A DNA stretch of 64,000 nucleotides from contig JAFCGI010000005.1 of assembly GCA_017608235.1 (NCBI GenBank), positions 46,930-110,929 on the forward strand, written 5' to 3'. Of the stretch, positions 12,701-57,689 are shown piece by piece. The notes beneath the pieces were generated by a model. The model was not told the DNA's origin, made no database searches, and worked only from the letters and a program-made list of their open reading frames with translations. The DNA comes from Candidatus Pacearchaeota archaeon (GTDB lineage: Archaea > Nanobdellota > Nanobdellia > UBA10117 > JAFCGI01). Within the stretch, counting starts at the first letter, position 1. Every line of letters starts with the position of its first letter. The position numbers and the translations under genes are program-made.

Positions 12701-12883
12701 GAGAATATTGAAGATAATGGTTATGAAACCCAGCCACAAATAGAAACTCAAGAAACTAGCTACCAAGAAGATACTGAAGATACTCAAGCTAGTACTCAAT
12801 CCCAACCACAAATAGAAACTCAAGAAACTAGCTACCAAGAAGATACTGAAGATAATGAATGGAGCTTCCTGCTAACACTTTAA
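9800..12883 (+). CDS. Large (1027 aa) secreted or membrane-anchored coiled-coil protein with SAP/HeH-like motifs and C-terminal acidic tandem repeats
   Basis: N-terminal hydrophobic segment GSGTLGLAALIVAAKATAEG. Motifs LPVEGLKRNDLLEQLRIYY and LGLPTKNKKHKELIEQLYNYY. C-terminal ETQETSYQENIEDNGYETQPQI repeated about four times. Confidence 0.5.
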   Translation: MGNRLKRAGYVLGSGTLGLAALIVAAKATAEGQFLITGQSVDYHLGNMYHNFQSALNSVYNWLISDNHSLDRIGRDYDGKTPWNRTENSEQITETKPDVRSNPNEYIVEREIKTDRSLVMHHNGEGSSLTFDPDQGSQETYIPREQFISKIQVGIGDYATGQEGTGHYKGELLAGDANGDGKYDLEIANGETKTVWEIRNHSEVNDDLEGKIFENKEDAVGAVESTAVTGPAEKEYTFWERFNGAGGNIGFGGAFIKNLGLRLAGSWGMFIGLVGLQYKLHKSKKEWKKKTYINDTLEYIAKDLKNRAEMIGINIPSSNQRISDKELELCIAIVDDGDQIETSTNQSLEQEVQKIPKIQEIQQILSKDKLNRAKMNELTKLSEDASLPVEGLKRNDLLEQLRIYYRRIYYRYDDPEESQIETQNVAQNVEQEKLNKEIRELVVKELSDLRIGALKDILKTLREEYASNVSIPYVYSEEEANADVHASIIDAIRKGIYSEDFKTDIKKRKALINSFEAKTFTIEDVEKNLNNKNLSKYELKKLEKLINKKINAKELNIDYWHSIRTNNIRKLIREHNLSDEEIVEYLNISKDYVGSDILNDLRDEVEREKFEEDMIAPLIKIYPDIAAELGYELIDKELSDGYGSISNDPHLIGGYYWKKFIEWDMDTLNEKLNIAKKIFKQINKHTDIQSIKTILRQNGGFELLVDIVNEMREELSNSKKNELIKRSEELGLPTKNKKHKELIEQLYNYYNYDKLESTIPAEQPTQAITQSQPEVSIEQPTRPYKVVKREIKEKIRNLRSEKKNIERLLRDKEKQIKEYHASNNKSYADSFLRDATNVRQSYTVQIQEKNIKIESLKYQLQKAKKNKKKNQTDQQVSSQNESVQTPDQPEQEASSRVAISYTNLSAEESITSSDSSSLVDEVDQKIPDLDNSDGDQKETQETSYQENIEDNGYETQPQIETQETSYQENIEDNGYETQPQIETQETSYQEDTEDTQASTQSQPQIETQETSYQEDTEDNEWSFLLTL
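12611..12870 (+). repeat. Intragenic tandem repeat of 66 nt, about 4 copies (last two diverged to 72 nt), encoding ETQETSYQE(N/D)... units
   Basis: Direct reading: gaaactcaagaaactagctaccaagagaatattgaagataatggttatgaaacccagccacaaata repeated. Confidence 0.85.
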
Positions 12884-41631: not shown

Positions 41632-42900
41632 ATGGCAGAAAAACCACATATGAATTTGGTATTTATTGGTCATGTTGACCATGGAAAAAGTACAACAGTA
41701 GGTAGAGTTCTCTTTGATTCTGGAAATATTTCAGAAGTAGAGATGAAGAAATTGAAAGAAAAAGCACAAGAATTAGGAAAAGCAGGTTTTGAATTTGCTT
41801 TTGTCATGGATACAATTAAGGAAGAGCAAGAGAGAGGAGTAACAATTGATTTATGTTATAAAAAATTCGAAACTGGTAAGTATTATTATACTATTATTGA
41901 TGCTCCTGGGCATAAAGACTTTATTAAGAACATGATTACAGGAACATCTCAAGCAGATGCTGCTATAGTAGTAGTTGCTGCATCTGAAGGTGTTATGGAG
42001 CAAACTAAAGAACATATTTTCTTGGCAAAGACTCTAGGTGTACCACAAATTGCAATTGCAGTTAATAAGATGGATGCTGTAAACTATGAAGAAGCAAAAT
42101 TTAACCAAATTAAAGATGAAGTTGGTAAATTACTTCAAACTGTAGGTTTCAAACCAGAAGATGTTAAATTTATTCCAATTTCTGCTTTGAAAGGTGATAA
42201 TGTTGTTAAGAAATCTGAAAACCTTGCATGGTATAAGGGTGGAACATTAACTGAAGAACTAGACAATTTTACTGCTCCAGAAAAACCAACAAGCCTACCA
42301 TTAAGAATGCCTGTACAAGATGTATATACAATTACAGGTATAGGTACTGTTCCAGTAGGTAGAATTGAAACTGGAGAAATGAAAGTTGGAGATAAGTTAA
42401 TTGTTCAACCAAGTGGAAAGGTTGGAGAACTAAAGAGCATAGAGATGCATCATGAACAAATGCAGAAAGCTGGACCTGGAGATAATGTTGGAATTAATAT
42501 TAGAGGTCTGGGTAAAGATGATATTAGAAGAGGAGATGTACTTGGTTTAGAAAGCAATCCTCCAACTGTTGTAAAAGAATTTACTGCGCAAATAATTGTT
42601 CTAAATCATCCAACTGTTGTTACAGTAGGATATGCACCTGTATTTCATGTAAATACAGCACAGGTGTCATGTAGAGTTACAGAACTAGTAAAAACCATTG
42701 ATCCAAGAACTGGAGAAACTCTAAAAGAAAAGCCAGACTTCTTGAAGAATGGTGATGTAGCAATTGTTAAGGTTGAACCAACACAACCAATGTGTTTGGA
42801 AAAAACCTCAGACATCCCACAAGTATCTAGATTTGCTATCAGAGATATGGGAAAGACTGTTGCTGCAGGCATGTGCATAGATTTAGTTAAGAAAGAGTAA
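41632..42900 (+). CDS. tuf: Elongation factor 1-alpha
   Basis: [21 protein letters not shown]. Confidence 0.9.
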
Positions 42901-42910
42901 ATCTTTTTTC

Positions 42911-43447
42911 TTATTTTCTTTTATATTTTTTGATTATTTTTTCTAAATATTTAATTTCAAAGAATTTCTGATATCTTCTTACAAATGCCATTACAAATAT
43001 TCCTATAAATATCCATCCTAAAATCCATATTAATGGAATTCCTAAAATTATTGGTCTTAGATATATATTTGTAGGATATGACCATATTCCAAATACCTGA
43101 CTTCCTAGATATTCTAAAAAGAAACCTATACTAGATGCAGTTAAAACATCATAAAATAAGCAGTTTTTCTTATTATTCTTTGAGATTTTATGGTTTTTTT
43201 GAAAATAATCTGAAATTAGAGCAAATCCTCCTATTGTGATTCCCCATATCAATATTATAACTAAAGGTATATCTTTCCATAAATATATAGTAAATCCTGT
43301 ATAATCAAATAGACTTTCTGCTGAAAATTCCCAAATTAATCCATATAAGCAGCCTATAAAGAATTCTCCCATATATGAAGTTCTAAGCTTCCAGCCTAAC
43401 AACAAAAATCCAAATATAAATATAAAAGTTATTATTTCCCAAAACAT
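42911..43447 (-). CDS. Hypothetical polytopic membrane protein
   Basis: Five to six hydrophobic helices; basic C-terminus. Confidence 0.4.
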   Translation of the reverse strand: MFWEIITFIFIFGFLLLGWKLRTSYMGEFFIGCLYGLIWEFSAESLFDYTGFTIYLWKDIPLVIILIWGITIGGFALISDYFQKNHKISKNNKKNCLFYDVLTASSIGFFLEYLGSQVFGIWSYPTNIYLRPIILGIPLIWILGWIFIGIFVMAFVRRYQKFFEIKYLEKIIKKYKRK

Positions 43448-43478
43448 ATTTTGAAATTGGAAATTTTAATATATAAAT

Positions 43479-43588
43479 ATAGTTAATTACTAAAGAATTA
43501 ATAGTTAATTACAGAAGGATTAATAGTTAATTACTAAAGAATTAATAGTTAATTACAGAAGGATTAATAGTTAATTACTAAAGAATTA
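43479..43588. repeat. Intergenic tandem repeat, 22-nt unit x5 (attaatagttaattac + taaaga or agaagg, alternating)
   Basis: Direct reading. Lies between the rps10 3' end and the start of the membrane-protein gene. Confidence 0.85.
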
Positions 43589-43894
43589 CTCGATAACTTG
43601 TATTTCTATATTAACATCTTTTGGAATTGGTACTCTCATAACTAAATGCAAGGCTCGTTCATCAGCAGCTAAATCAATCATACGCTTATGAATTCTCATT
43701 TCGTATCTTTCCCAGGTTTCTGTACCTTCACCATCTGGGGCTTTTCTTACTGGAATTCTAAGGATTTTTGTAGGAAGATTTATTGGACCTGAATAGTTTA
43801 CTCCTACATTCTTAGCAATATCAGTAATCTGATTAGCTATGCTATTCAATTTGTTTATGTCTGTGCTGTAAAGCTTAATTCTTGCTTTTGGCAT
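43586..43894 (-). CDS. rps10: Ribosomal protein S10
   Basis: MPKARIKLYSTDINKLNSIANQITDIAKNVGVNYSGPINLPTKILRIPVRKAPDGEGTETWERYEMRIHKR is typical S10. Inverted relative to tuf. Confidence 0.8.
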   Translation of the reverse strand: MPKARIKLYSTDINKLNSIANQITDIAKNVGVNYSGPINLPTKILRIPVRKAPDGEGTETWERYEMRIHKRMIDLAADERALHLVMRVPIPKDVNIEIQVIE

Positions 43895-43999: not shown

Positions 44000-44074
44000 T
44001 GGGCCCGGGCGGATTCGAACCGCCGATCCCCGCCTTGTAAGGGCGGTGTCATAACCAGACTAGACCACAAGCCC
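44000..44074 (-). tRNA. tRNA-Val (anticodon TAC)
   Basis: Reverse complement reads GGGCTTG-TG-GTCTAGTCTGGTTATGAC-A-CCGCC-CTTACAA-GGCGG-GGATC-GGCGG-TTCGAAT-CCGCC-CGGGCCC-A. Confidence 0.75.
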
Positions 44075-44077
44075 ATA

Positions 44078-44207
44078 AGCCCCGAGTGGGAGTCGAACCC
44101 ACGACCTGCGGTTATCTTGCCTTTGCTGGTTTCCTTCACCAGCGTTTCTTTCTTGAAGAAAGGCTATGTTACAAGACCGCCGCTCTACCAGACTGAGCTA
44201 TCGAGGC
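44078..44207 (-). tRNA. tRNA-Thr (anticodon TGT) with a roughly 56-nt intron at the anticodon loop
   Basis: Reverse complement: acceptor GCCTCGA/TCGGGGC+T; D-arm GCTCAGTCTGGTAGAGC; anticodon stem GCGGT/ACCGC with loop CTTGTA|intron|A; T-arm GTGGG-TTCGACT-CCCAC. Confidence 0.65.
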
Positions 44208-44568
44208 ATATGAGGAAATGACTTTTTATGGTTTATAACTATTTTGTTTATTAACAGTAGATAGGAAAGTGCAAAAGTGGGAACTGAATGAAAAATTCCT
44301 TCATTAGAAAGCTTGAGACCATCATTCTTGAGGTATTGTAGTGCGAGAGCTTTTTGTTTGCTTCTATAGTGCTGGATCATTCCATAAACTCTCATAATAT
44401 CTCTATTCTCTTTTCTGTATTTATTCTGTCTTTGCCTCTCTATCTCTGGATTATTAAGTATCCATTCTTTAGATTTGGCTCTAATAGCCTTTTTATTTCT
44501 TTGGTAGTATTCTCGCTTTTTCTTTAGATTATATTCTCTATTTTTTAACTTCCATTCTCTGCTTAATT
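44198..44568 (-). pseudogene. Open reading region with no start codon, directly after the stop of the zinc-ribbon gene in a different frame. It continues the EY..EYY..NK repeat pattern and its stop codon overlaps the tRNA-Thr 5' end. Either a frameshifted C-terminal extension or a remnant
   Basis: Own translation: ...REYNLKKKREYYQRNKKAIRAKSKEW... following ...KEYRKEYYEKNKEKY* of the upstream ORF. Confidence 0.25.
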
Positions 44569-44865
44569 TTAGTATTTCTCTTTATTTTTCTCATAATACT
44601 CTTTTCTGTATTCTTTGGGTGTTTTAGAAAATCCATTAAATAACAGTTTTAAACTCTTTTTAATCTCTTTAATCCTTGCTAAATGTTCTTTATATTCTTT
44701 ATCAAATCTTTCCGCATCCTCAATTCTTCTTCTTTTGTTAAATTCCTGAAATTCCTTGACTTCTATCTCTTTTTGAGGAAACAATCTAGAACATAAAGCA
44801 CATTTGTATTTAGGTCTAGAAGAAAGCAATACAAGTTTGTATGAGTAGTTTGGACATCGTGGCAT
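44569..44865 (-). CDS. Zinc-ribbon protein, last gene of the island operon
   Basis: CPNYSYK...CALCSR. The start overlaps the stop of the upstream nuclease gene. Confidence 0.45.
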   Translation of the reverse strand: MPRCPNYSYKLVLLSSRPKYKCALCSRLFPQKEIEVKEFQEFNKRRRIEDAERFDKEYKEHLARIKEIKKSLKLLFNGFSKTPKEYRKEYYEKNKEKY

Positions 44866-45893
44866 TATTTCTTCTCCTTTTTCTTTAAAGCTTCTTTATT
44901 TTCTCTCGCATATTTTATATTCTGAAGTTGTCTTTTCCCATTTTCAATGAGTTCATTAAAAGTAACTATTTTAATATGAGGTCTTAATTGAAAATTCCAA
45001 TTTTTTATAAGTCTCTGTTCCCCATCACTTATATTGTAACCCATAACAATTATTCCGGAAGGGGCTTGTATTTTATAAGTGCCCTCTTCAGATAAACCAC
45101 TATACAAATCTGTTCTACGCAAGTAGAGAATCAATTGATTAATCCCTTGTGCTAGTTCATCAGAAATATATAATCTTGAGTCATCTTTTTTCTTGAAAAA
45201 TGGATTAAGATTTGGGCTTTTGAATTCAAAAACTTTATCTTCCCCAATTTCAGTTTTTATGTGAAGATCTACTGCTAATTGTGGATCAACTGCTTTTTCA
45301 GAAGCCTTAACCTCACAATCTATGCCTAATATCCATTTACTTTCCTTAAGTTTCGTTTTTACTAAATGCTCTTCTCTTTTAGTACCCTTACTAATTCTTT
45401 TTACTTCATTTTCAAATTCAGTTAGTTTAGATTCATAATCTTCTATTTTATCAATTACTTCCTTAGCAAGTGTTATCTCAATTTGTTGTTTACTTAAACG
45501 TTCCTCAGCATCCTTGAGTTTTATTTTTGCTTCTACAAGTTCATTGTTTAACAATTCAACTTTTTCTTTATATATTGAAACTTCTTCTGAAACATCTTCT
45601 ATTTGTTTACCCCAAATTTTATATGCGAATCCTTTAACTGTTTTAGAAAACCATTTGAACCATTCTGAGAGATTAATTCTATTAGGAATCCAAAAACCAG
45701 ATTTATGTGTTTTAAAATAAGGTTTTGTTGATGCAGATTGAACTCTTATACCTTCATATCCTTGTGTATTTTTTTCAGAAGAGATTTTTGATTTATAAGT
45801 TCCTTCTTCAAAACTGTCTGATTTAATCTCTTTAATATGCTCTGATTTATAAAAATCATTTGTTCTCTTCTTTTTAGTTTTCTTTTTTGTCAC
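44865..45893 (-). CDS. PD-(D/E)XK-superfamily nuclease with an N-terminal basic/coiled-coil region (Shedu/DUF4263-like or RecB-like fold)
   Basis: In the C-terminal domain: VDLHIK...KVFEFKSP (D...ExK) and QGINQLILYLRR (QxxxY). The N-terminus is a K-rich segment followed by heptad-like coiled coil. Confidence 0.5.
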   Translation of the reverse strand: MTKKKTKKKRTNDFYKSEHIKEIKSDSFEEGTYKSKISSEKNTQGYEGIRVQSASTKPYFKTHKSGFWIPNRINLSEWFKWFSKTVKGFAYKIWGKQIEDVSEEVSIYKEKVELLNNELVEAKIKLKDAEERLSKQQIEITLAKEVIDKIEDYESKLTEFENEVKRISKGTKREEHLVKTKLKESKWILGIDCEVKASEKAVDPQLAVDLHIKTEIGEDKVFEFKSPNLNPFFKKKDDSRLYISDELAQGINQLILYLRRTDLYSGLSEEGTYKIQAPSGIIVMGYNISDGEQRLIKNWNFQLRPHIKIVTFNELIENGKRQLQNIKYARENKEALKKKEKK

Positions 45894-45894
45894 T

Positions 45895-46572
45895 TTATTT
45901 TTCTCCTCTTATTTTACAAAACCCACACTCTTTACTTGCCTTTGGCTCTTTTCCTTGTAAAATTTTAATGGCTTGTTTGAAAACTTTTTCCCCTCTTTTA
46001 GGATCTGTTTTAATTTTAATCAATTTGGTATCAAATATTACTTCTCCTGTTTCTGTAACATGATTAGGATAATAAAACAATAGATAAGTATAGTCTTCTG
46101 TTTGATAACCATTTTCTCTTAATAAGAAATTATAAAGATCCATTTGATTGATATAATGCTCATGAGTATCTTCTTTTAGAGGAAATCCTCTTGTTTTGTA
46201 ATCTAAAACAATTAGTTTCTTTCCTTTCTTTAGAATATTATCTACTGCTCCATGTAATAAAATATTTGATTTTTTGTCTAGTAATTCTATACCCTTAAAA
46301 TTGCTTCTCCAGATTTTTAGTTTTTCTTTATCATTGAATAATTTACATCCATCATTTGCACATTCTTGTTCTTTTAGTTCTGGTGGAAGTTCTCCTTTTT
46401 CCATAAACCTATCAAAATGCTCTTTTAGAACTTTATCCATCCCTGAAGGTAAACTTGGGAATGGTGTGTCTGGTCTTCTTTCTTTTTTAACTAATTGAAG
46501 CCAGAAACATCTAGGACATTCTAGCATTAAATTCAATGAACTTGGTGATATTTTGTATGTTGATTTATTCAT
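45895..46572 (-). CDS. Cas4-like / RecB-family exonuclease with Fe-S cluster cysteines (DUF83 type)
   Basis: N-terminal ISPSSLNLMLECPRCFWL (the Cas4 signature). LHGAVDNI...LIVLDYKT (D, D/ExK), QMDLYNFLL (QxxxY). C-terminal cysteines CGFCK. Confidence 0.65.
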   Translation of the reverse strand: MNKSTYKISPSSLNLMLECPRCFWLQLVKKERRPDTPFPSLPSGMDKVLKEHFDRFMEKGELPPELKEQECANDGCKLFNDKEKLKIWRSNFKGIELLDKKSNILLHGAVDNILKKGKKLIVLDYKTRGFPLKEDTHEHYINQMDLYNFLLRENGYQTEDYTYLLFYYPNHVTETGEVIFDTKLIKIKTDPKRGEKVFKQAIKILQGKEPKASKECGFCKIRGEK

Positions 46573-48893
46573 TTGAATATTATCTCCTTTAATTTTTTAA
46601 TTTCATTTTCATTTAATAGATTTATTCCTTTTGGATTTTGAATTATATCTCCTTTTAATTTAATAAATGGCTTATTTTTTTTATCAAATGTCAATTCTTG
46701 TTTAAAATAGATAACTCCTGAGATAATATCTGTATTTGGATTTGTTTTATGTATTGAATCGTCTTTTCTCGAAGGATATTGATCTATTGTTTTGCCAGTT
46801 TTTTTATCCATAACTAAGGTTAAAGATAAACTTCCAAAGAAGGTATTGATTATTTCATGTTCATCAATAGTTGAACCACTTTTATCTATAACTATAAAAA
46901 TAATATCACTCCTTTTTTTATTTAACATTTCTTTTAGAGTTACATCTGATTTAATCTGTTTTTTAAATTTATTTTTTATTTTTTTAAGAGCTTCATTAGG
47001 CATGGCTACAGCACTATTACTTAATCTTAAATTCTTATTAATTTCAGGTCTTGTAATCTCAAAGTAAATATCTTTATTGAATAAATTTACCTTAAGATCA
47101 AGATTATTGTTTTTTTTATTTGGTGGAAGGGGCTCTATAACCTCAATATGATTATTATCAAACTTATTTATAAAAATAAGTTCACTAAAATAATTCCAAA
47201 ATTTATTTTCATTAAACAAGTTTTGTTTTATATCCTTGACTATATGTTCTTTTTTCTTGAATTTTTCATTTGCTTTTGTCTCAATTATTTTAATGTTCTT
47301 ATTCAATTCATAAAGATAAGCTTTTGGCCAAAATCTACTTCTAACAAAATCTATCTTAAATGCCTTATTTAATTCAGAATCTTTTTCTGAAATTTTAATA
47401 TCTTCAAGAGTTGGTTGTTCATTTTCTCCAAGCCAAATAAGAGGAGTGTATCGCTTTTTGTTTTCTGCTTCTATAATTACCTCTTTTGCAAATTTATACA
47501 AGTTAGTGTATTTTTTGAGATTTTTTTTAATTATATCAAAGTTGTATTTTTCTTTCCTATTTCTCAATTGAGTTAAAAGATTTTCAGCAAAGTTAATTAA
47601 ATAGTCATAATCGTCTTTAGAAAAAGGTTTTTTGTTTTTCCTTTCATTGTATTTATTTTTATTAAACTCGATGAAATTTTTTTCCTTAGATATTTTAATT
47701 AGATTGTCTATAAGTTTAATAATAACATCTTTATTTTTAATATCCTTAAAAATATTTCCAATTAAGACATTATTTAACTCAAAAAATAAATATTTTTCAT
47801 CTTTATTCTTTAGATTAAATTTTAGTATCTGATCCAAAGCATAGCTTATATGGAATTTTGAGAGTGTTTTAAATAAATGAGGTAATGTAACAATATATAA
47901 TTTTGATTTTTTATTTTGGATTCTCTTGTAATTTTCAAGGATATATCTAATAAAAAGTCTATTCTTTTTTACTAATTCCTCAAGTGCCCAGTCAAAATGT
48001 CTTAATTTAAATTCCATATCTTTATTTAACCAATAAATAAACAAATCAGATATTTGTTTATATGGCTGAGGAAACTTCCTTAATACTTCAACGATTTTGT
48101 CTATTATGATATAATCCATATCTTTAGAATATTTAATAAGTTCAAAGATTTGTTTTTGGTTTAATAAGTCTTTATATGTTAACCTATCAAACAATAAATA
48201 AGTAATATTTTTGTCCTTTAGTTTTATTAAATCAAAGAGTTTATTATAAAAATAGTCTTTATTTTTATTAAAAAATATTAAACAAACATTAATGAATTCT
48301 TGCAGTATTTTTTTATCTTGGTTTTTAGATATTTTATCAAAATAAGAATAAGCTTCTTTACTTAGTCTTTGGGATTCATATTTATACAAAATAGCTTTTA
48401 ATATAGAATTAGTTTGTGGATATTCAAGCTTTTTATTTAAAAATTCCTCCAGGATTGAATCATTTTTTACTGAATATCCTCCAAGGATTAAACCAGCCAC
48501 TACCTTAAAATCACTATCTTTAGATTTAGTTATTATCTTCTTATAAAATTGTAGAGCAAATGGTTTATTTTTTCCAATATCTTTTAGTATATTTAGGAAA
48601 GGCCCTTGAGCCATATCTCTTTTTATTTTATTGTTTATTTTTTCTAATAATTCAAGGTATTTATCTGTGTTATCTGCTAACTCATATGTAACAGTAGTAA
48701 TCAATTCAAAATATCCCCAAAAGTCAGAACTAAAGAGAAAATCATCAATTAATTTATATTTATCCTTTTCAGATAGCTTAGATTTATGACTATTGTAAAC
48801 TTTGATTTGTTCTTCAAATTTGTAATATTTACCTTTTAAGTCTTCTTCAAGGCTCATATTCTTGGCACCATCTTCCATTTTTCTTGATTGCAT
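46569..48893 (-). CDS. Large (774 aa) predominantly alpha-helical protein with a distinct C-terminal domain, function unknown; no P-loop found
   Basis: Extremely K/N/I/F/Y-rich and more AT-rich than the neighbouring genes. Start and stop overlap both flanking genes in the operon. Confidence 0.45.
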   Translation of the reverse strand: MQSRKMEDGAKNMSLEEDLKGKYYKFEEQIKVYNSHKSKLSEKDKYKLIDDFLFSSDFWGYFELITTVTYELADNTDKYLELLEKINNKIKRDMAQGPFLNILKDIGKNKPFALQFYKKIITKSKDSDFKVVAGLILGGYSVKNDSILEEFLNKKLEYPQTNSILKAILYKYESQRLSKEAYSYFDKISKNQDKKILQEFINVCLIFFNKNKDYFYNKLFDLIKLKDKNITYLLFDRLTYKDLLNQKQIFELIKYSKDMDYIIIDKIVEVLRKFPQPYKQISDLFIYWLNKDMEFKLRHFDWALEELVKKNRLFIRYILENYKRIQNKKSKLYIVTLPHLFKTLSKFHISYALDQILKFNLKNKDEKYLFFELNNVLIGNIFKDIKNKDVIIKLIDNLIKISKEKNFIEFNKNKYNERKNKKPFSKDDYDYLINFAENLLTQLRNRKEKYNFDIIKKNLKKYTNLYKFAKEVIIEAENKKRYTPLIWLGENEQPTLEDIKISEKDSELNKAFKIDFVRSRFWPKAYLYELNKNIKIIETKANEKFKKKEHIVKDIKQNLFNENKFWNYFSELIFINKFDNNHIEVIEPLPPNKKNNNLDLKVNLFNKDIYFEITRPEINKNLRLSNSAVAMPNEALKKIKNKFKKQIKSDVTLKEMLNKKRSDIIFIVIDKSGSTIDEHEIINTFFGSLSLTLVMDKKTGKTIDQYPSRKDDSIHKTNPNTDIISGVIYFKQELTFDKKNKPFIKLKGDIIQNPKGINLLNENEIKKLKEIIFK

Positions 48894-49567
48894 CGGTATA
48901 AATACCCATTTGGGATTATTTCAAAATTTTTTGTACTATTTTTTTTGCAAATTACAACGTCACATCCATAAATGTATGGACTTCCTGTAAACTGAAAATC
49001 AATCAAAGAGATGTTATTTAAAGTATTAACTGAGTGTCTAATTATTTGTTTAAAATTTCTTTTTAGTTCATAGGATTTTAATTCATTTAATTGAGATAAA
49101 ATATAATTTCCTCTTCGCAAATCATTATTTGAATCAAGACAAGTCTCTTTACCAGATCCTATGAATCCTTTTTCAATAGATTTGATCTCATAGTCTTTTA
49201 TGTTATTGGAAACCATTTTCGAGAAATCAATTTTGTAACACTTAAATGAAGCGATATTAAGTAGAATACAAGAAACATCAATTTTTGAGAGTCGGGGATA
49301 TGTTTTTTTAATGATAGCATATATTTTTTTGAATTGTAGCCTGTTGTTGATATTTGCGTAAAACATATCTTTTATTTTTATTATATTAGAACTATTCCCT
49401 GCAAAACCCAATATCCAATTTTTTCTTATTTCTACTTTTTTTGCAAAATTATGTGGAAAGACTTCATATCCTTCAGTCGCCCGGATAGTATCATGTATAT
49501 CAGTTTCCAACCTATCTGCAACAAGTACCCACGCATTCTTCAATGGAAAGGCAAAAATAGAAGTCAT
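48854..49567 (-). CDS. HslV/proteasome-beta-like N-terminal-nucleophile hydrolase (Thr directly after the initiator Met, no propeptide)
   Basis: [17 protein letters not shown] aligns with HslV [31 protein letters not shown] aligns with HslV [16 protein letters not shown] matches the HslV/proteasome GSGG block. SD GAGGGG lies 11 nt upstream. Confidence 0.55.
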   Translation of the reverse strand: [237 protein letters not shown]

Positions 49568-49634: not shown

Positions 49635-52340
49635 TTATTTTTTATATTCCCTAAAATTTCTCTCTAATTCTTTAAAAGAGGATGGGTGATATTTATCAAA
49701 ACTCTCTTCGTCCACATAAATAAAGTCATATTTAGCCTTTTTCTGAGACTTGTTTAGATCTTCACACCATTGTTTTAATCTCTGCATTTTTAGTGGAACA
49801 TCTAAGTCTTCCTTACCTTTAGTTTCAATTATGAAGATTTCTTTATCTGATTTTTTAACAATAAAATCTGGATAATACTCTGAAATATTTCCATCTTTAT
49901 TTTTATAATCTATTTTAAAATGGACACCAAAATAATTTTTGACGTAAGATACTATCTCCCCTTCTGGACAATTTTCTAAAAAATTAGCAAATCTTAATTC
50001 TAAATCGCTATCTCCTATAATCTTATTAAAGATGCTTTTTTTAGGAACAAGATATCCTTGCTGTTTTACAACAAAAGACCTACATTGACTGAGTTTTATG
50101 TAATTTCTAATTTCTGCTTCTCCTTTATCTTGAACTGTTAAATCATTAATTTCTTTCTTAAAAGTTTCAATTATTGTTCTTGTTGCTTCTATCTCAGATA
50201 GATTTCTTAAAATATTCAAATCTTCTAAGTTAACCTTTTCTTTGAACAATTCATTTTGAATAAAATTCTTGACTTTTTCATATAGAATGTCATAACCACT
50301 AATTAATCTTAATTCCTTCATTATACTTTGAGTAAAAAAACCAATTGCTCCCTGATAATTGATAATGGCATTGCTGTCTAATACTGTTTTATGGTGTGCT
50401 TCTTCCTTAGAATCTTCTTTGTTCACTACATATTTAAAAACAATTTCTTTCTTTTCTTCTTCTGAAAATTTTTGAATGTTTATTTTTTTATGTTTAAATT
50501 TAGAAACTTCTAACTCAGAAAGATTTTTGTATTCTCTGAATATTCTTGGAGTTAAAACAGGAATTTCTATATCTAATTTTTTAAGATTTTTCTTTTTATT
50601 CTCTTTGTCTATTTCAACAACAAGAGGTGTTTTGGCAGGAGTCCTATCTCCCATTTTTCTTTTTTCCAGTTCAACACCTTCATTTTTTATAGACTCAACA
50701 AATTCCATAAAAGCAGGAGTTCCAACAACACTAACATACTCTTCCACATCTTCTCCCCTGTACATTCTTCTTAATCCTCTTCCTAATGTCTGCTCAGGTA
50801 AGATATTGCTTTTTGCTGAATATGCTCTTAATCCAACAATTGTTGTAACATTTTTTACATCCCATCCTTCTTTTAGCATTAAAACAGAAACAATAGCTTT
50901 GTATTTGCTATCCGGATTATCAATATCATTAGCTGCTTTTCTTAATTCTTTTAGTTCTTTTTCTTTTTTTCCAGTCACTGATTCAGAGATTTCTCCATTA
51001 TTTTTAGTATGAATTACTAAAACAGCATCTTTTAGATCTGAATATGTTTCTTCCAAATATTTTTTCACTTCATCACAATTTTTAGTATCATCAGTCATAA
51101 CAAACAGAACTGCTTTTTTCCCAGCCTTTATCTGCTCATTATAAACTTTCTTCCATTCTTCATATCCAAGATGAATAAAGTCCCTATATTTCTCTGTAAA
51201 GTTTGAACTCTTTATTTCATTTAATTTTGCTCTACTTGCTTCATCTGGAACAAGAGGTTTTTTGACTACATCTTGATATATGGCCTCTACCAAAGGATAA
51301 TCAGAAATAGTTTGAACAAAAATTGCTCCATTAACCTGCTTTGGTGTAGCTGTTGTGTCTACTTGTAAAGATACCTTGCTTCCCTTTTGTAAAAGTTTAT
51401 TATGAATATCTTGAAGTGATTTAAACCAAGCCATTCTTTCATCATGTATATGGTGCGCTTCATCATTTAGAATTACTAACTCGTCAACATCTCTCACAAT
51501 CTCACTTAAATCAACTTTAGATTCATTTGTTGGTCCAACTGGTTTTTCTCCTAAAAAATAATCCATAGTATTATCATCTTCAGAAGAAGGAGTTTTTGTT
51601 CTGCTATCAAAAACTCTGTGGATATTTGTTAAAAATATATTTCCTACACTTTTTACAACGTTTGCATCATCCTGAATATATAAAGATAATTGAAAATCAT
51701 CTTGCCAGTTTTGGCCATCAAAACCATTTGGCGGAAGAACTGGATCTTCATAGAATACTCTCAACCCATCGAAGTCAGCTCTTATTCTGTCTAAGACAAT
51801 AATATTTGGAGTAATTATTAAGAAATTTCTTGCTAAATCTGAATCTTCTTCATATAATTTATGAAAATAACTCCATGCTAAGACTAGACTTAGAACTTTT
51901 GTTTTTCCAGAACCAGTAGCCATCTTGATAACAAATCTTCTCCATGTTTCTGCAAACATTCCGGTAGACACTGCACCAGAACTATCATATCTCATTAAAT
52001 CATGTTTATCCTCAACTTTAGCTACTTCATACAAGTAAATTATTGATTCTATTGCTTCTCTTTGGCAAAAATAATATTTGAATAAAGAAATATTTCCTTC
52101 TGAGTCCTCTATAGGATGGTCGGTTTCAAACCACCATTTCAAAAGAGCCTTGCTTGTTTCACTAGCTCCTTCGTAATTTGATTCTCTCCATTTTTTAACT
52201 TCTTTTCTTATTTTATCCACTAATGGAGGCAGAAGTTTTTGATATCCTTCTTCCCTTAATGCTTCATCAGCAGGAAACCATCTAATTGAAGGGTCTAAAA
52301 TATCATGAGGCGATCTTGGGAAATCTTTGTGAAGAGCCAT
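49635..52340 (-). CDS. res: Type III restriction-modification Res subunit (SF2 helicase plus C-terminal endonuclease)
   Basis: Walker A MATGSGKTKV, DEAH box LNDEAHHI, and the C-terminal nuclease motif YYPDFIVKK...FIIETKGKE. 901 aa. Confidence 0.8.
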   Translation of the reverse strand: MALHKDFPRSPHDILDPSIRWFPADEALREEGYQKLLPPLVDKIRKEVKKWRESNYEGASETSKALLKWWFETDHPIEDSEGNISLFKYYFCQREAIESIIYLYEVAKVEDKHDLMRYDSSGAVSTGMFAETWRRFVIKMATGSGKTKVLSLVLAWSYFHKLYEEDSDLARNFLIITPNIIVLDRIRADFDGLRVFYEDPVLPPNGFDGQNWQDDFQLSLYIQDDANVVKSVGNIFLTNIHRVFDSRTKTPSSEDDNTMDYFLGEKPVGPTNESKVDLSEIVRDVDELVILNDEAHHIHDERMAWFKSLQDIHNKLLQKGSKVSLQVDTTATPKQVNGAIFVQTISDYPLVEAIYQDVVKKPLVPDEASRAKLNEIKSSNFTEKYRDFIHLGYEEWKKVYNEQIKAGKKAVLFVMTDDTKNCDEVKKYLEETYSDLKDAVLVIHTKNNGEISESVTGKKEKELKELRKAANDIDNPDSKYKAIVSVLMLKEGWDVKNVTTIVGLRAYSAKSNILPEQTLGRGLRRMYRGEDVEEYVSVVGTPAFMEFVESIKNEGVELEKRKMGDRTPAKTPLVVEIDKENKKKNLKKLDIEIPVLTPRIFREYKNLSELEVSKFKHKKINIQKFSEEEKKEIVFKYVVNKEDSKEEAHHKTVLDSNAIINYQGAIGFFTQSIMKELRLISGYDILYEKVKNFIQNELFKEKVNLEDLNILRNLSEIEATRTIIETFKKEINDLTVQDKGEAEIRNYIKLSQCRSFVVKQQGYLVPKKSIFNKIIGDSDLELRFANFLENCPEGEIVSYVKNYFGVHFKIDYKNKDGNISEYYPDFIVKKSDKEIFIIETKGKEDLDVPLKMQRLKQWCEDLNKSQKKAKYDFIYVDEESFDKYHPSSFKELERNFREYKK

Positions 52341-54508
52341 TATTTATTTCCCCCTTTTAATTCTATAACTTTCGTTGTATCGTTTCCAAAAATATCAACA
52401 ACTTTAATAGCAATTTTTCTTTTTCCAGAAATTTTCCTGAAGGGAGTTTTTAATTCTAATTCTCTATTCTTCTTTGTTCTAAATGACTGCCATTCATTTT
52501 CAAAGATATAATCTCCTGTCCATTTTTCTTCGTATTCTTTTTCAAAATCCAGCTTTCCTGTTTGTTTCTTTTGTTTTTCTATTTTGATTATTTCTTTTTT
52601 GCTTTCAAAATCAAAATCTACTGCCCAATAATCAATCCAGTCAGTCCATTTTTTAGTTAAAACATCCTGTGTAACAATTCCATTTTTATCTTTTGATACC
52701 TTGATTATATTTCCATTCTCTACTACAATTTTATTGCTTCCATTTTTTAAACTGGCTTCAACATGTTTTATTGAATCCTGATTATAGAAAACAGAAAAAT
52801 CAGCTAATTCAATAGCCACGCCATCTTTAATATAATGTGGTGTAACTTCAATATATGAAACATCAGTAAATACAACTTGATTCTTTTCAACTGCTCTTTT
52901 ATCGAATACTTCTCTTGGGATATGTTTTAGTGCTAAATCAACACCTTTGGCTTTTGCTTCTTCTTGAATATGGGGAAATAATCCCATTTCAAATTCAAAT
53001 GCAAGAATGTCAACTTTAGTTATTTTGTTTTTAATTGCTTCCTCGATAGCCTCTTCAATAAATAATCTTCCCACTGGTAAATTTATAGGACCAACTGCAA
53101 CTAATCTATTTAATTTCTTTCCTGAAAAGGTATTATATCCTGTAACTCCCTCTGCTCTGTAAGCATGAAGGATTAGTTTAACAAAATCTTTTTCCTTTTT
53201 TGCTATTTGTTTTTGTTTTTCTTCATCCCTTAAATTTGAATTTACTCCAACATAATGTTGTCTTTCATATTTTCCAAGATTTAATATCTCAAATGCCCTG
53301 AAATCTTTTCCATCTTTTTTTAATTGTCTTTGAACATCAATCATCCTTTTTCTTGTTGTGTGAATTGAGAACTTTCCTAAATCAGAACCAATCCATTTTC
53401 TTCCTAATTTTTCTGCAACTGCTAAGGTAGTTCCTGAACCACAGAAGAAATCGCAGACAATGTCGCCTTCATTTGATGATGCTTTTATTATTCTTTTCAT
53501 CAATTTTTCAGGTTTTTGTGTAGGATAGTCTAATAATTCGCTTACTATTCTTCCAACTGGTGAAATATCTACCCACCAATCTTCTAATTGTTTTCCTTCT
53601 TCCTCAAGAGCTCTCAGTTTCTCTTCACTAGTTTCAGTTGTTCTAAATCCTAAACCTCCCTTACCATGTATGCCAGATTTATGTTTGATTCTTTGGATGT
53701 TAAAATTAGTATTCTCAGATTTAGCATAGAAAAGGATAGTATCATGTTTTCTTGTAAACCCTTTTTTATTTTTTAATGGAGAACTGTAACACCAAATAAT
53801 TTCATTCCTAAAATTCTGTTTTCCAAACACTTCATCCAACAGCAACCTCATATATCCAGAGACTCTCCAATCACAATGAACATAAATACTTCCATCAGGA
53901 GCAAGTAAGTCTCTCATTAGCATTAACCTTTCATACATCATTGCAATAAAACTATCTGCTCCCTTGCCCCACGTATCTCTGTAAGCCAATTCTTCCAAAA
54001 CATTCGGTTGCTTTGTAAATTCATCATCTCCAATATTTATCTTCATAGAGAAATCAGCACCAACATCAAATGGTGGATCAATATAAATTAATTTAATTCC
54101 TCCTTGTTTTTCAATCTCTTCTCTTAATGAACCATTTTTCAAACTTGAGAGAATTAATTTGTTATCTCCCCAAATAAGCTTATTAGTCCATCCTTTTAAT
54201 TGTCTCCCTCTTGTATCTGTTTCAAAATCAATTAAGCTAACTTGTTTTCCTCCCCCTAAACCTTCTTTTCTTGGTTCATCCACTTGTTCAATAACTTGAA
54301 AAGGAAGAACGACATTAGTAACATCTCTAGATTTTCCGTTCCAAACTAATTCAACTTCCCTTTTATCTCCAAATAATAAAAATCTATATTCTTCTGGTAA
54401 GGGAACTCCCTTTTTTAAGAAACTTGTTATATCTCTAATTTCATTGTCAGATAAGACTATTTTGGTTTTTGATTCAAATTTTGATTTAACTTGTTTCTTT
54501 TTAGCCAT
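52340..54508 (-). CDS. mod: Type III restriction-modification Mod subunit (beta-class N6-adenine/N4-cytosine DNA methyltransferase)
   Basis: Motif IV DPPF (IYIDPPFDV) lies upstream of the YPTQKP block and motif I FFCGSGTT. Its stop overlaps the res start. Confidence 0.8.
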   Translation of the reverse strand: MAKKKQVKSKFESKTKIVLSDNEIRDITSFLKKGVPLPEEYRFLLFGDKREVELVWNGKSRDVTNVVLPFQVIEQVDEPRKEGLGGGKQVSLIDFETDTRGRQLKGWTNKLIWGDNKLILSSLKNGSLREEIEKQGGIKLIYIDPPFDVGADFSMKINIGDDEFTKQPNVLEELAYRDTWGKGADSFIAMMYERLMLMRDLLAPDGSIYVHCDWRVSGYMRLLLDEVFGKQNFRNEIIWCYSSPLKNKKGFTRKHDTILFYAKSENTNFNIQRIKHKSGIHGKGGLGFRTTETSEEKLRALEEEGKQLEDWWVDISPVGRIVSELLDYPTQKPEKLMKRIIKASSNEGDIVCDFFCGSGTTLAVAEKLGRKWIGSDLGKFSIHTTRKRMIDVQRQLKKDGKDFRAFEILNLGKYERQHYVGVNSNLRDEEKQKQIAKKEKDFVKLILHAYRAEGVTGYNTFSGKKLNRLVAVGPINLPVGRLFIEEAIEEAIKNKITKVDILAFEFEMGLFPHIQEEAKAKGVDLALKHIPREVFDKRAVEKNQVVFTDVSYIEVTPHYIKDGVAIELADFSVFYNQDSIKHVEASLKNGSNKIVVENGNIIKVSKDKNGIVTQDVLTKKWTDWIDYWAVDFDFESKKEIIKIEKQKKQTGKLDFEKEYEEKWTGDYIFENEWQSFRTKKNRELELKTPFRKISGKRKIAIKVVDIFGNDTTKVIELKGGNK

Positions 54509-54755
54509 TTTTCATCTCTTTAACAGCTTCTTCAGGTCCTTTTAGTTTGTAAAGTCTTATTCTGGAATCTTGAGGATCTAGTCTAGCTTCTAACCAGCCA
54601 TATTTTTTAAGGTCAGAAATGCACAGGCTTACGACCCTCTCATCCTTCTCTTTAAGGGCTTCTATGGCCTGTTTATGGGTAAATTCTTCATTTCTAAATT
54701 TATTCCAAAGTGTTGAATATCTTTTCATAATCCATCGTGGAAGCGGTTCTATCAT
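54501..54755 (-). CDS. Small winged-helix-like protein upstream of and overlapping mod; possible regulator (controller-like)
   Basis: MIEPLPRWIMKRYSTLWNKF...LDPQDSRIRLYKLKG. Start placed at the internal Met; the longer track ORF N-terminus looks spurious. Confidence 0.35.
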   Translation of the reverse strand: MIEPLPRWIMKRYSTLWNKFRNEEFTHKQAIEALKEKDERVVSLCISDLKKYGWLEARLDPQDSRIRLYKLKGPEEAVKEMKNG

Positions 54756-54949
54756 ATTAAGTCCCTCATGTGCATCACATAAGTAATATGTAGTCCTATT
54801 TAAATATATTGTTTTGCATTTTAAGCCAGAAATAAAGTGTATTCTACAGAATAACAATGTTTAAATAGTAGTTATGCTTATTACATAAGTATTATGTATA
54901 TAAAATAAGTATCAAGAGAGACTCTCCGCAAAGATCATCTCTCCTGGTA

Positions 54950-56526
54950 ATGGAGTCCGCGATGAACTCCACAATAGAAAGAATAGAAAAGGAACTTAAT
55001 AAAACTTTTGAGTCTGTTAGTGAGAAATGGATTAAAACCTCTTCTGTTCTTAAAAAATTGAACTTACAATTAATAGAACAAAGACAATCTAAATTCAATC
55101 CAGAAAGCTTAATTAAATTATATCTTTACAGAAGAATAAAAGGCATCCATTATTATGAAAAGTTAATAGAACATTTAGAAAATAATGAAACTGATTCTTA
55201 TGATCTTGGATTTTCAAATGGAAATAATAACAAGTTAGAATTTCCAACAAAAAGAGCATTTAATAAATTCTTCAAAAATAAAATTGATGATAATCTCAAA
55301 TTACAATTAGATAATCTTACTAAAAATATTCTAAGAATAGCAACTCAAAAAGGAATAGTCTTAGATTTAGAATTAGTCAATAAAGCAATAAAAGATAAGA
55401 AAGATAAAAAGAGAGAGAGAAAAGAAAAGCATTTCATGAAGCCACTAAATTGGTAAAGAAATTAGTCTATCCTCAAATTGATATTAAAATTAAAGAGAAT
55501 GGAAAATTTACAACTAAGGATTTATTGGATGTTTTAGTTCATATTGCTTATTCTCATGATTTTACTACAAACGGCTCTTCTACATTCCAGGAATTATATC
55601 CTGACTTAAAAGCTCCTTCTGGAGATTTAATGTTATATCATTTTTCTAAATTGCAATCAGTAGATAAAATAAAAGATATGTTTATTTCAATATTTGATGT
55701 TATTTTTAACTTTGCTAAACAGAATTACAAGCTGTTAAATAGAAGAAAAATAGACATTGCGTTTGATGTCCACAAAATCCCCTATTATGGCAATAAGAAT
55801 GATTTTTATGTAACAGAAGGAAAACATGAAAGAGGAACAACTCACTTCTATCAGTTCTTAACATGCTCAATAGTCGTTGCTGGGCAGAGATTTAGTATTG
55901 ATGCTATTCCTATTCATAAATTTGATAGTATTGAAAATTTAGTAGATCAAAGTTTAGAAAGGGTTAAACAAAAAATTCATATCAATAAAGCATATCTTGA
56001 TAGAGGTTTTGATAAACCAAAAGTAATCAACGTTATCAAAGCTCATAAAGTAAAGTTTATCATGCCAAAAGTTAGAAGTGAAACTGTAAAGGCATGGATG
56101 AGAAAATCTGAGGAATGCAAGGCGAGAGTTATTGAAAACTTTGAAATTGGTAAAGGAGAGAATAAGGCTATTGTGAACTTAATCCTTGTAGATGATGAAG
56201 AAGGGATAAAGAGAGCTTTCATTACTAATTTTCACATTCCTGAACAACTATCACATTATCTTTATAATTGGTATTCAAAAAGATGGGGAATTGAAACAGG
56301 GTACGGGCAGTTTGACCATGATTTTAAAGCAAAAACCACTACTAAGAATTATCACATTAGATTATTCTATTTCTTATTTTCAGTATGTTTGTATAATCTT
56401 TGGGTCTTGGTAAATATTTGTGTTTCTTTATCTCTTCATGGTAGATTGTCAGAAAAGCCAATAATTACATCTAAGTTATTTGCAGTTGTTCTTTACAAAG
56501 TTGCTTATGAAGATCCTCCAACGTGA
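54950..56526 (+). mobile_element. IS4-family (DDE_Tnp_1) transposase gene, split into two overlapping ORFs (54950..55456 and 55450..56526) by a frameshift in an A-rich tract. Terminal inverted repeats not resolved
   Basis: DDE residues in IAFDVH, AYLDRGF and the signature YSKRWGIETGY. Both frames are open across the agaaagataaaaagagagagagaaaagaaaag tract. Confidence 0.6.
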
Positions 56527-56714: not shown

Positions 56715-57689
56715 TTAATATTCTAAGGTTTTTTTAAAAATATCAAATACTCTTTCCAAGTCTTTATGATTTGCTTTATCTCTTAGCTCAATCCTAGCTG
56801 AAGCCTTAATCATGGATATTATTGACTCTATTGTTTTGGGAGTTACCTTATATAACAATGAATGTTCTTTAGATTTAAGAGTTGTGGAAAAATCTTTTAT
56901 TAGGTCTAAAAACTGATTTGGAATTTCTACCTTTATTTGATTTGCATGATTAATATATTCTCTAATAAAATCCATATCTGCTTGTTTTGGCTTTTGTTTT
57001 TCAGACATAACTATCTTTTCTGCTATGTCTGCAAATTGTTCTAAAGAGGCATCCCTAATAATAAATGCTAAATTAAAATCTGATAGTTTTGTATAAGAAG
57101 GTATTTGTGACTTAATAATATGTATAGAATAATCTTCAATATTCTTTTTTGCATCTATAACTTTTGGTAGATTTTTTGAAGATATTTTAGATAATGAATC
57201 TAATATACTGGTTTTTCCAGTTCCAGAATTTCCAAATAATAGCATGTTTAGTGAATCCTCTGTGAATAATTGAAGCATGCATGCTTGCTTAACTTCTCTA
57301 AGTCCTACTATATTAGAAGCAATATATTGTGGAATTATATTCCAAGCTCTTTCTTTAAACTCTTTGAATTTTTCTTTAAGATATTTTCTTTCTATCTCTT
57401 GATTTAATATTGTTAGATCTTTTTCTTGCGATTCTATTTTTGGAATTATATTTTTTCCAGAAATTAGGAAAGAGAAATCCTTTTTCTTTCGAACTAATTT
57501 AGCTTTTTTTTGCTTGATTTTTGTTTTTATAAATGAGATTTGATCTTTGCTTAGATATTCTGATAAGAAATTTAGATCTGTTTTTTCTTCTTTAGTTAAA
57601 GGTCTTAATCTAAGAAATAAATCAATAGTATTATTTAGACTATTTTCTATTATTTGAATTGTACCTTCCTTAGCAGTTTTCTTTGCCAT
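56715..57689 (-). CDS. Mini-MCM-like AAA+ ATPase (MCM helicase core homolog, 324 aa)
   Basis: IVGLREVKQACMLQLF...NMLLFGNSGTGKTSIL parallels the MCM IYGHEDVKKA..LLVGDPGTAKSQ region. Walker A GNSGTGKT. Lies 20 nt from the tRNA-Met 3' end. Confidence 0.5.
   Translation of the reverse strand: MAKKTAKEGTIQIIENSLNNTIDLFLRLRPLTKEEKTDLNFLSEYLSKDQISFIKTKIKQKKAKLVRKKKDFSFLISGKNIIPKIESQEKDLTILNQEIERKYLKEKFKEFKERAWNIIPQYIASNIVGLREVKQACMLQLFTEDSLNMLLFGNSGTGKTSILDSLSKISSKNLPKVIDAKKNIEDYSIHIIKSQIPSYTKLSDFNLAFIIRDASLEQFADIAEKIVMSEKQKPKQADMDFIREYINHANQIKVEIPNQFLDLIKDFSTTLKSKEHSLLYKVTPKTIESIISMIKASARIELRDKANHKDLERVFDIFKKTLEY

Follow-up and report, generated by a model that had tools for sequence, protein, structure and literature searches.

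Olokun is a validated two-gene system that consists of an adaptin-like protein, OloA, and a PD-(D/E)XK nuclease, OloB (bioRxiv 10.1101/2025.07.10.664194). PrrC is an accessory nuclease found in a Type IC restriction-modification (R-M) locus; it is active once the R-M enzyme is inhibited and has been described as an "RM guardian" (PMC12707154). Here, both are compared with a cluster of five genes, A to E, located in a stretch of 64,000 nucleotides (nt) from a Candidatus Pacearchaeota archaeon (assembly GCA_017608235.1, contig JAFCGI010000005.1, positions 46,930 to 110,929), which we refer to as the window. Gene A encodes a proteasome-like peptidase, and gene B a protein in which a helical solenoid is followed by a PD-(D/E)XK-like domain. 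The conserved unit is the two-gene A-B cassette, not the five genes. The embedding of this cassette in R-M operons of three types is the main regularity that we observe, and it was absent from the initial annotation of this DNA.

The A-B cassette resembles Olokun in that an adaptin-like helical protein is combined with a PD-(D/E)XK nuclease-like part, and the solenoid of B matches the PADLOC model of OloA co-linearly over ~440 residues. However, in the cassette both parts are present in a single polypeptide, the partner gene of B encodes a proteasome-like protease, which Olokun lacks, and the cassette is located in R-M operons of DPANN archaea and candidate phyla radiation (CPR) bacteria. The OloB model matches none of the five proteins, nor the C-terminal domain of B taken separately. 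With no OloB, a fused nuclease-like domain and another partner, A-B is not a member of the Olokun systems. The initial annotation had stated that no known defence system was matched. This is correct for A-B, which is not in PADLOC apart from the distant OloA, but not for gene D, which matches Shedu.

The similarity to PrrC and its relative RloC concerns the genomic setting, i.e., an accessory nuclease gene, here a putative one, is inserted in a Type I R-M operon. In addition, the solved structure closest to the putative effector domain of B is a tRNase. There is however no sequence or domain relation. PrrC and RloC combine an ABC-ATPase with an anticodon nuclease, and neither of these domains was found in A or B using Pfam, PADLOC and NCBIfam. 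The A-B cassette also differs from PrrC and RloC by its presence on Type IIG and Type III systems and by its protease.

The A-B cassette and its restriction-modification hosts

The survey comprises 44 loci (numbered with an L below), 33 of them non-redundant, obtained from exact look-ups, a scan of GTDB genomes and a scan of JGI metagenomes, the last using a narrower family alignment (A2). All loci were annotated with hidden Markov models and phmmer, and spot checks were made with Pfam. A proteasome-like gene, either A or a divergent form referred to as A', is directly upstream of B in 28 of the 32 readable non-redundant loci. The A' proteins begin MTLIIYVRCRDGCVLISDRQAS and stand before a B subfamily of 21-27% identity. 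In most loci, the two genes overlap by 4-40 nt or are at most 4 nt apart, and the pair is translationally coupled. The homologues come from metagenome-assembled genomes of Woesearchaeota, Pacearchaeota and Nanoarchaeota, and the cassette ranges over the DPANN archaea, with at least one occurrence in a Patescibacteria bacterium. If the five genes of the window formed a unit, their homologues should co-occur in other genomes, as the initial annotation pointed out. This is what we find for A and B and, within a single clade, for C, but D and E occur nowhere else.

In ~22 of the 33 loci, A-B lies inside or abuts an R-M operon of Type I, IIG or III; it is embedded in Type I operons in at least six loci and abuts Type IIG or Type III genes in at least twelve. 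In the Type I operons, the cassette is located between hsdR and hsdS/hsdM (L012, L013, L021, L027, L032 and L033, as well as the fragments L029 and L034). It directly follows MmeI/Eco57I-type Type IIG genes in L004, L005, L007, L011, L015, L016, L017/L046 and L041, and some of these Type IIG hosts also carry a PLD-SNF2 helicase gene, while L001 keeps a 139-amino-acid (aa) remnant. In the window and in L022, the cassette follows the Mod and Res genes of a Type III system. Frequently, A overlaps the R-M gene by 4 nt, or hsdS overlaps B by the same length. In L009, a distant B without A is found between hsdS and hsdR.

The B protein of the window is 62-64% identical to Type IIG-linked copies, compared with 39% to the other Type III-linked copy. 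As its nearest relatives sit on Type IIG and not on Type III systems, the cassette is not bound to a single kind of R-M system and, judging from these identities, it moves between R-M types.

The Type I operons of L012 (7507-9029 and 12150-12692), L013 (13291-14376) and L021 (5227-6336) hold further inserted genes. These are DUF3800 and DUF4145 genes and a 361-aa protein with weak metallopeptidase-like matches. Just upstream of A in the same group there are unannotated open reading frames (ORFs) of 155-170 aa and 369 aa.

Sequence and predicted structure of A and B

Protein A is a proteasome-beta/HslV-family N-terminal-threonine peptidase of the N-terminal nucleophile (Ntn) type. This had been proposed in the initial annotation, including the lack of an AAA+ partner, and both the fold and the invariant catalytic set agree with it. 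The AlphaFold2 model of A, with a predicted local distance difference test score (pLDDT) of 80.6, is an alpha-beta-beta-alpha sandwich as in the proteasome, HslV and Anbu. Searching the PDB with this model using Foldseek gives 780 matches with E≤1e-3, and all of these are proteasome beta, HslV or Anbu structures (top E 5e-8, template modelling scores of 0.5-0.65). The best PDB match of the family profile is HslV (4hnz, E 0.021), and there is a weak match in PHROGs to phrog_1040, annotated as "peptidase HslV family" (8e-4). No match to A was found in Pfam, NCBIfam or PADLOC (PADLOC 2.0 has no model for A), and an exact database look-up of the window protein returned no record. The A' protein of L038 reaches 20.1 bits (5.4e-4) against the Pfam Proteasome family (PF00227), i.e., below the cut-off of 22.4.

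A has no propeptide, and its Met-Thr start would expose Thr1 by removal of the methionine, as in HslV. Met1-Thr2 is invariant in all 18 aligned homologues (16-76% identity), and the A' proteins also begin with MT. T2, D18, K44 and G57 are equally invariant in this alignment. D18 is the equivalent of Asp17 and K44 of Lys33, and in a profile-to-PDB alignment (4hnz) K44 aligns with the lysine of HslV and the proteasome. The set Thr1/Asp17/Lys33 had been named beforehand as a test of the assignment, and it is kept in each of the 18 homologues. Further, G137-S138-G139, D190 and T194-G195 (-x-P) are invariant or nearly so in 16 sequences and are lost in the L004/L011 subtype. From motif resemblance, not superposition, the G-S-G, D190 and T194 are probably the equivalents of Ser129, Asp166 and Ser169. 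Protease A is probably active, because the equivalents of Thr1, Asp17 and Lys33 are invariant and the fold is confirmed.

The fold and the exposed threonine, together with the invariant aspartate, lysine and glycine and, in most members, the GSG and D-x-x-T-G motifs, place A beside HslV, the proteasome beta subunit, Anbu and BPH. However, several features set it apart from HslV and the proteasome. A has neither an HslU/AAA+ partner nor an alpha subunit, falls below the Pfam and NCBIfam thresholds, carries insertions (~237 aa, compared with ~175 for HslV), is paired with a HEAT-nuclease gene and has subtypes that are 16-25% identical to each other. An AAA+ unfoldase gene (HslU) adjoining A was not found in any of the surveyed loci, the genes next to A being B and those for R-M. 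The sole AAA+ ORF near A in the window is an MCM fragment, 7 kb off on the other strand.

A evolves faster than B, with a mean pairwise identity of 26% vs 44%, while the identity matrices of the two proteins correlate (Mantel r 0.50; 0 of 2000 permutations are as high). In L001, L011 and L017, B is 62-64% identical to the window copy but A just 23-24%, whereas in L015 B is 62% and A 78% identical. From these identities, A subtypes therefore seem to have been exchanged between closely related B genes. The fast evolution of A and the subtype exchange would suit a component that faces a viral partner, either a substrate or an inhibitor.

Gene B had been described in the initial annotation as a 774-aa helical protein. 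This is correct for a solenoid of ~540 residues, but the nuclease-like C-terminal domain was missed. The AlphaFold2 model (pLDDT 86.8) consists of an all-helical solenoid that ends near residue 540 and an alpha/beta domain that spans residues 548-774; the pLDDT is lower in the inter-domain linker, residues 490-545. The fold of the solenoid matches INTS4/7, CAND1, importins, adaptins, PP2A-A and YibA, and when full-length B is searched against the PDB with Foldseek only helical-repeat proteins are found among the top 50. At the sequence level, the PADLOC OloA model matches the solenoid of the window protein with an E-value of 4.5e-6 and matches 5 of 13 relatives (best 2.2e-9), co-linearly from 55-495 vs 77-520 of 596.

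The C-terminal domain gives no consistent match against Pfam, PADLOC or the PDB sequences. It is however the best-conserved part of B, with a mean pairwise identity of 48% compared with 43% for the solenoid. Among 62 members (15-58% identity), D599 and E612 are the only invariant columns, while E571 and D670 are kept in 90% or more. In the secondary structure that DSSP assigns to the model, E571 belongs to a helix, D599 opens strand 2 and strand 3 contains E612, and this acidic E...D...E layout in the modelled structure agrees with that of the PD-(D/E)XK fold. The domain also resembles a solved member of this fold, the closest being the CdiA-CT(II) toxin of Bp1026b (PDB 4G6V), a PD-(D/E)XK tRNase. 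The two differ in that the identity is 17%, K242 of the toxin has no demonstrated equivalent in B, and CdiA-CT(II) is a secreted contact-dependent toxin with an immunity protein.

An exhaustive HMMER search puts the B family at no fewer than 352 clusters of 50% identity, counted by their representatives with E≤1e-3, and 112 of these reach E≤1e-30; most members are 700-770 aa long. None is annotated; one named member comes from a Patescibacteria bacterium. On haloarchaeal plasmids (L044 and L045) there are solo proteins of ~695 aa whose similarity to B is confined to the C-terminal domain (31-35% identity), with no protease gene upstream. L045 is located on the Halorubrum ezzemoulense megaplasmid (NZ_CP034941.1, 498610-500688) and adjoins an IS6 element and a BREX-5 pglZ cluster.

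Proposed role of the cassette and alternatives

We are confident of the anatomy described above and of the reading of the locus as composite and linked to R-M. We further consider it fairly probable that the locus is a composite defence island, located on a Woesearchaeota-like DPANN archaeal chromosome between tRNA genes and an insertion sequence (IS) element, and that A-B is its core with a guardian role. The island is regarded as composite because the other loci lack D and E and because the GC content differs between A-B and C-D. From the combined analysis, A-B would probably be a second layer of virus defence.

We suggest that A-B, or A-B-C where C is present, could be an "R-M guardian" comparable to PrrC, a second-line module coupled to restriction, in which: (i) the solenoid of B would be both sensor and scaffold, its ligand being either the R-M complex or a protein of the virus, for instance an anti-restriction factor, (ii) the C-terminal PD-(D/E)XK domain would be the toxic effector that cuts DNA or tRNA and (iii) A would control the system by proteolysis of B, of an inhibitor or of a trigger protein. 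This specific mechanism is tentative. In the same speculative vein, A-B(-C) might represent an undescribed class of immune modules in which an AAA+-free protease of the proteasome family, with a catalytic threonine, gates or arms a HEAT-solenoid nuclease toxin. It is a real possibility that the cassette is a new category of defence module.

Several observations weigh against the proposed role. The surveyed loci were found by similarity to B and are mostly located on short metagenome contigs. A is missing beside B in L009, L020, L037 and L039, as well as on the haloarchaeal plasmids, while in L014, L026, L031 and L036 the cassette has no visible R-M system; therefore neither the R-M link nor the protease is obligatory. 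The OloA match is weak for the B protein of the window, and solenoids can give biased matches. Finally, the lysine of the (D/E)xK motif is not conserved in B, whose residue 614 can be T, K or V (FEIT, FEIK, IEVV). Thus, the domain could serve for binding or be an atypical nuclease, and the lysine may have been relocated.

The main rival explanation is that A-B is a restriction-alleviation device, in which A would remove R subunits (HsdR, Res) when these attack unmodified DNA of the host, with B as the adaptor by which they are recognised. There is an established precedent, as ClpXP degrades HsdR of Type IA and IB systems in E. coli (PMC12707154). The overlapping stops and starts of the cassette between hsdR and hsdS/hsdM fit such a device, as do the large R or fused RM enzyme that the three linked R-M types have in common, the intact catalytic set of A and the fact that HEAT solenoids are typical adaptors. 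However, the most conserved residues of B form an acidic E...D...E set in a nuclease-like fold similar to a toxin, which an adaptor would not need. The four loci with no visible R-M system and the solo B protein beside BREX on a haloarchaeal plasmid are not accounted for either, and the swapping among unrelated R-M types is hard to square with the recognition of one R subunit. Restriction alleviation thus explains the protease and the embedding, but not the acidic residues, the R-M-free copies and the type swapping, and we find it rather unlikely.

A selfish role is less probable still. Here, A-B would be an addiction module, similar to a toxin-antitoxin pair, that stabilises mobile R-M systems without any sensing of viruses, with B as the toxin and A as a labile or processing partner. 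The cassette is indeed found in mobile contexts (in L026 with an integrase and Fic, in the window with the IS element and the MCM fragment, and on the Halorubrum megaplasmid with IS6), PemK and HEPN-MNT are neighbours in L005, and the fold of the B domain is toxin-like. But A is an enzyme with conserved catalytic residues, unlike a typical antitoxin, and B, with ~750 aa and a large sensor-like solenoid, is far bigger than the toxins of such pairs. The faster evolution of A and its subtype swapping are more typical of host-virus interfaces. An addiction module is also compatible with defence by abortive infection, i.e., the two are not mutually exclusive.

If the guardian role proposed for A-B is correct, this would be the first case in which a proteasome-like protease is assigned to antiviral immunity in prokaryotes. 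The immune proteases described so far are caspase-like, Lon and CHAT enzymes, which a proteasome-family protease would then join. No paper on HslV/proteasome-like proteases in anti-phage defence was found in full-text literature searches. It would also be a second, unrelated case of the PrrC-type guardian logic, acting across Type I, IIG and III systems, and it would give a handle on how the adaptin-like proteins of Olokun-type systems work. Known defence systems are reported to be scarce in DPANN archaea and CPR bacteria (bioRxiv 10.1101/2025.04.20.649705). A cassette that rides on R-M systems would fill part of this gap and would be a defence strategy typical of these genome-reduced archaea and bacteria.

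Genes C, D and E and the borders of the island

The five genes were initially proposed to form one operon-level system in which the peptidase controls the nucleases C and D together with a zinc-ribbon protein, E. This we now regard as very improbable. The five genes of the window do share one direction, with junctions that overlap or abut, and C recurs with A-B in one clade. However, tight packing is the rule in these small genomes, only A-B is conserved, and neither D nor E accompanies A-B in any of the 32 other non-redundant loci. Further, the GC content of A-B is unlike that of C-D, D belongs to a type of system that works as a single gene, and E appears to be frameshifted.

Gene C scores 47.3 bits against Pfam PDDEXK_1 (cut-off 22), 1.5e-11 against the PADLOC Cas4 model and 2.6e-33 against phrog_31195. 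These matches show a Cas4/RecB-like nuclease and bear out the Cas4-like part of its first description as a Cas4-like nuclease of the iron-sulphur type. C has the RecB-type PD-(D/E)XK motifs and terminal cysteine pairs in common with Cas4 and DUF2779 proteins. It differs from Cas4 by a score of 41 bits against the cas4 equivalog TIGR00372, below the cut-off of 65, by a CxxC...CxxC arrangement unlike the Cas4 cysteine pattern, and by its context, as no cas genes or CRISPR-like array were found in the window. By these matches, it is best placed as a member of the wider PDDEXK_1 family. C follows B in the window, L011 (66% identity), L017, L018 and L046, which belong to a single clade, and in L037 a C-type gene precedes B, in the place of A. 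From this distribution, C appears as a third partner of A-B that is specific to one clade. A DUF2779 (Cas4-like) nuclease of ~485-535 aa is found beside A-B in L004, L005, L016, L027 and L032, convergent in three of them. We treat it as a family separate from C, because an N-terminal LECPR motif (E 0.009) is all that the two share.

Gene D was described as a PD-(D/E)XK nuclease with a coiled coil, in agreement with its match to Pfam SduA_C (PF14082; E 1.1e-11, 45.6 bits compared with a cut-off of 27, residues 174-316). Shedu is PD-T4-8 and forms a tetramer. D shares with Shedu the DUF4263/SduA_C domain and a variable N-terminal region; it differs in that the N-terminal part is a coiled coil and that the PADLOC SduA model gives no match. 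Because one gene suffices for Shedu, the best reading of D is that of an independent single-gene system stacked in the island.

The zinc-ribbon assignment of E is wrong or weak. The 98-aa ORF contains three cysteines only, and the 119-codon open frame that follows it repeats the motif K/R-E-Y-Y-x-x-N-K in another frame and ends inside the 5' end of an intron-containing tRNA. Joined, E and the downstream frame match neither Pfam nor the phage records. With three cysteines, no homologue and a motif that continues in another frame, E is probably a frameshifted gene, a remnant or an assembly error in an A-run.

That the block is a viral or plasmid replication-recombination module, the alternative offered initially, is highly improbable: Cas4-like nucleases and the phrog_31195 and phrog_1040 matches do occur in viruses and an MCM fragment is nearby, but scans of IMG/VR, which rest on short exact patterns, detected no relatives of B, C or D, tblastn of B against 50,697 phage records gives no match, and the contexts are chromosomal R-M operons beside housekeeping genes.

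The features of the locus are listed in Table 1. Because A, B and C have conserved homologues and C and D exceed the Pfam gathering scores, the five ORFs are judged to be real genes, beyond chance. They and their junctions were drawn correctly in the first description. If the longest ORF of B is taken, A and B overlap by 40 nt. Starting instead at Met13 (48857), B has an ATGA start/stop overlap with A, which agrees with the N-termini of the homologues, and this is probably the true start. There is an overlap of 4 nt between B and C, a gap of 1 nt between C and D, and a shared nt (TAATG) between D and E.

Table 1. Positions of the genes, domains and border elements in the window.
Feature	Position	Strand	Description
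Gene A	48854-49567	minus	237-aa ORF
Gene B	46569-48893	minus	774-aa ORF (longest ORF)
B N-terminal part, residues 1-540	47274-48893	minus	HEAT/ARM/adaptin-like alpha-solenoid, distantly OloA-like
B C-terminal part, residues 548-774	46572-47252	minus	PD-(D/E)XK-like alpha/beta domain, putative nuclease effector
Gene C	45895-46572	minus	225-aa ORF; Cas4/RecB-like PD-(D/E)XK nuclease with CxxC...CxxC
Gene D	44865-45893	minus	342-aa ORF, GTG start; Shedu-type nuclease: N-terminal region, coiled coil, DUF4263/SduA_C
Gene E	44569-44865	minus	98-aa ORF
E and downstream frame	44198-44865	minus	98-aa ORF and 119-codon open frame (44198-44557)
Type III Mod	52340-54508	minus	PADLOC MTase_III (7.5e-118); Pfam N6_N4_Mtase
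Type III Res	49635-52340	minus	PADLOC REase_III (6.3e-22); Pfam ResIII
Intron-containing tRNA	44078-44207 (130 nt)	minus	Rfam RF00005, 55.6 bits; missed by ARAGORN
tRNA-Val	44000-44074	minus	Rfam RF00005, 64.7 bits; also found by ARAGORN
Split IS transposase, two overlapping ORFs	54950-56526	plus	Pfam DUF772 (N-terminus), DDE_Tnp_1
Truncated MCM helicase	56715-57689	minus	324 aa; Pfam MCM/MCM_lid

The cluster had been placed in an accessory island beside a Type III R-M system, which we confirm. The Mod and Res genes are directly upstream of A on the same strand, and the end of Res is 67 nt from A. The GC content is 23-24% across A-B, compared with 30-32% across the R-M genes and C-D. A 118-aa ORF (54501-54857) with no family match overlaps the start of Mod. 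The entire region of 44.2-54.9 kb was also considered as one operon-level system and rejected, as its parts are not equally conserved, which speaks against this idea.

At the left edge of the island, tRNA-Val and the intron-containing tRNA adjoin each other; the latter is probably a tRNA-Tyr (anticodon region GTA). The right border is formed by the split DDE transposase, the MCM fragment and a tRNA-Lys, where the transposase and the MCM fragment are signs of the remnant of an integrated element to the right of the island. A search for direct repeats as att sites in 43.5-57 kb gave chance-level matches only. The neighbouring genes of the AT-rich host include housekeeping genes for RNA polymerase, EF-2, EF-1alpha and S10.

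The S10 gene (43586-43894) is on the strand opposite to EF-2 and EF-1alpha, with a membrane-protein ORF between them (41632-43894 region), i.e., the usual archaeal order EF-1alpha-S10 is broken at the border of the island. Just downstream of S10, before a 178-aa membrane-protein ORF, there is a perfect tandem repeat at 43479-43588 (2.5 copies of 44 nt, or five of 22 nt). Farther away in the window, a coding tandem repeat with a 66-nt unit (12605-12857; 3.7 copies, 90% matches) lies inside a 1027-aa ORF at 9800-12883.

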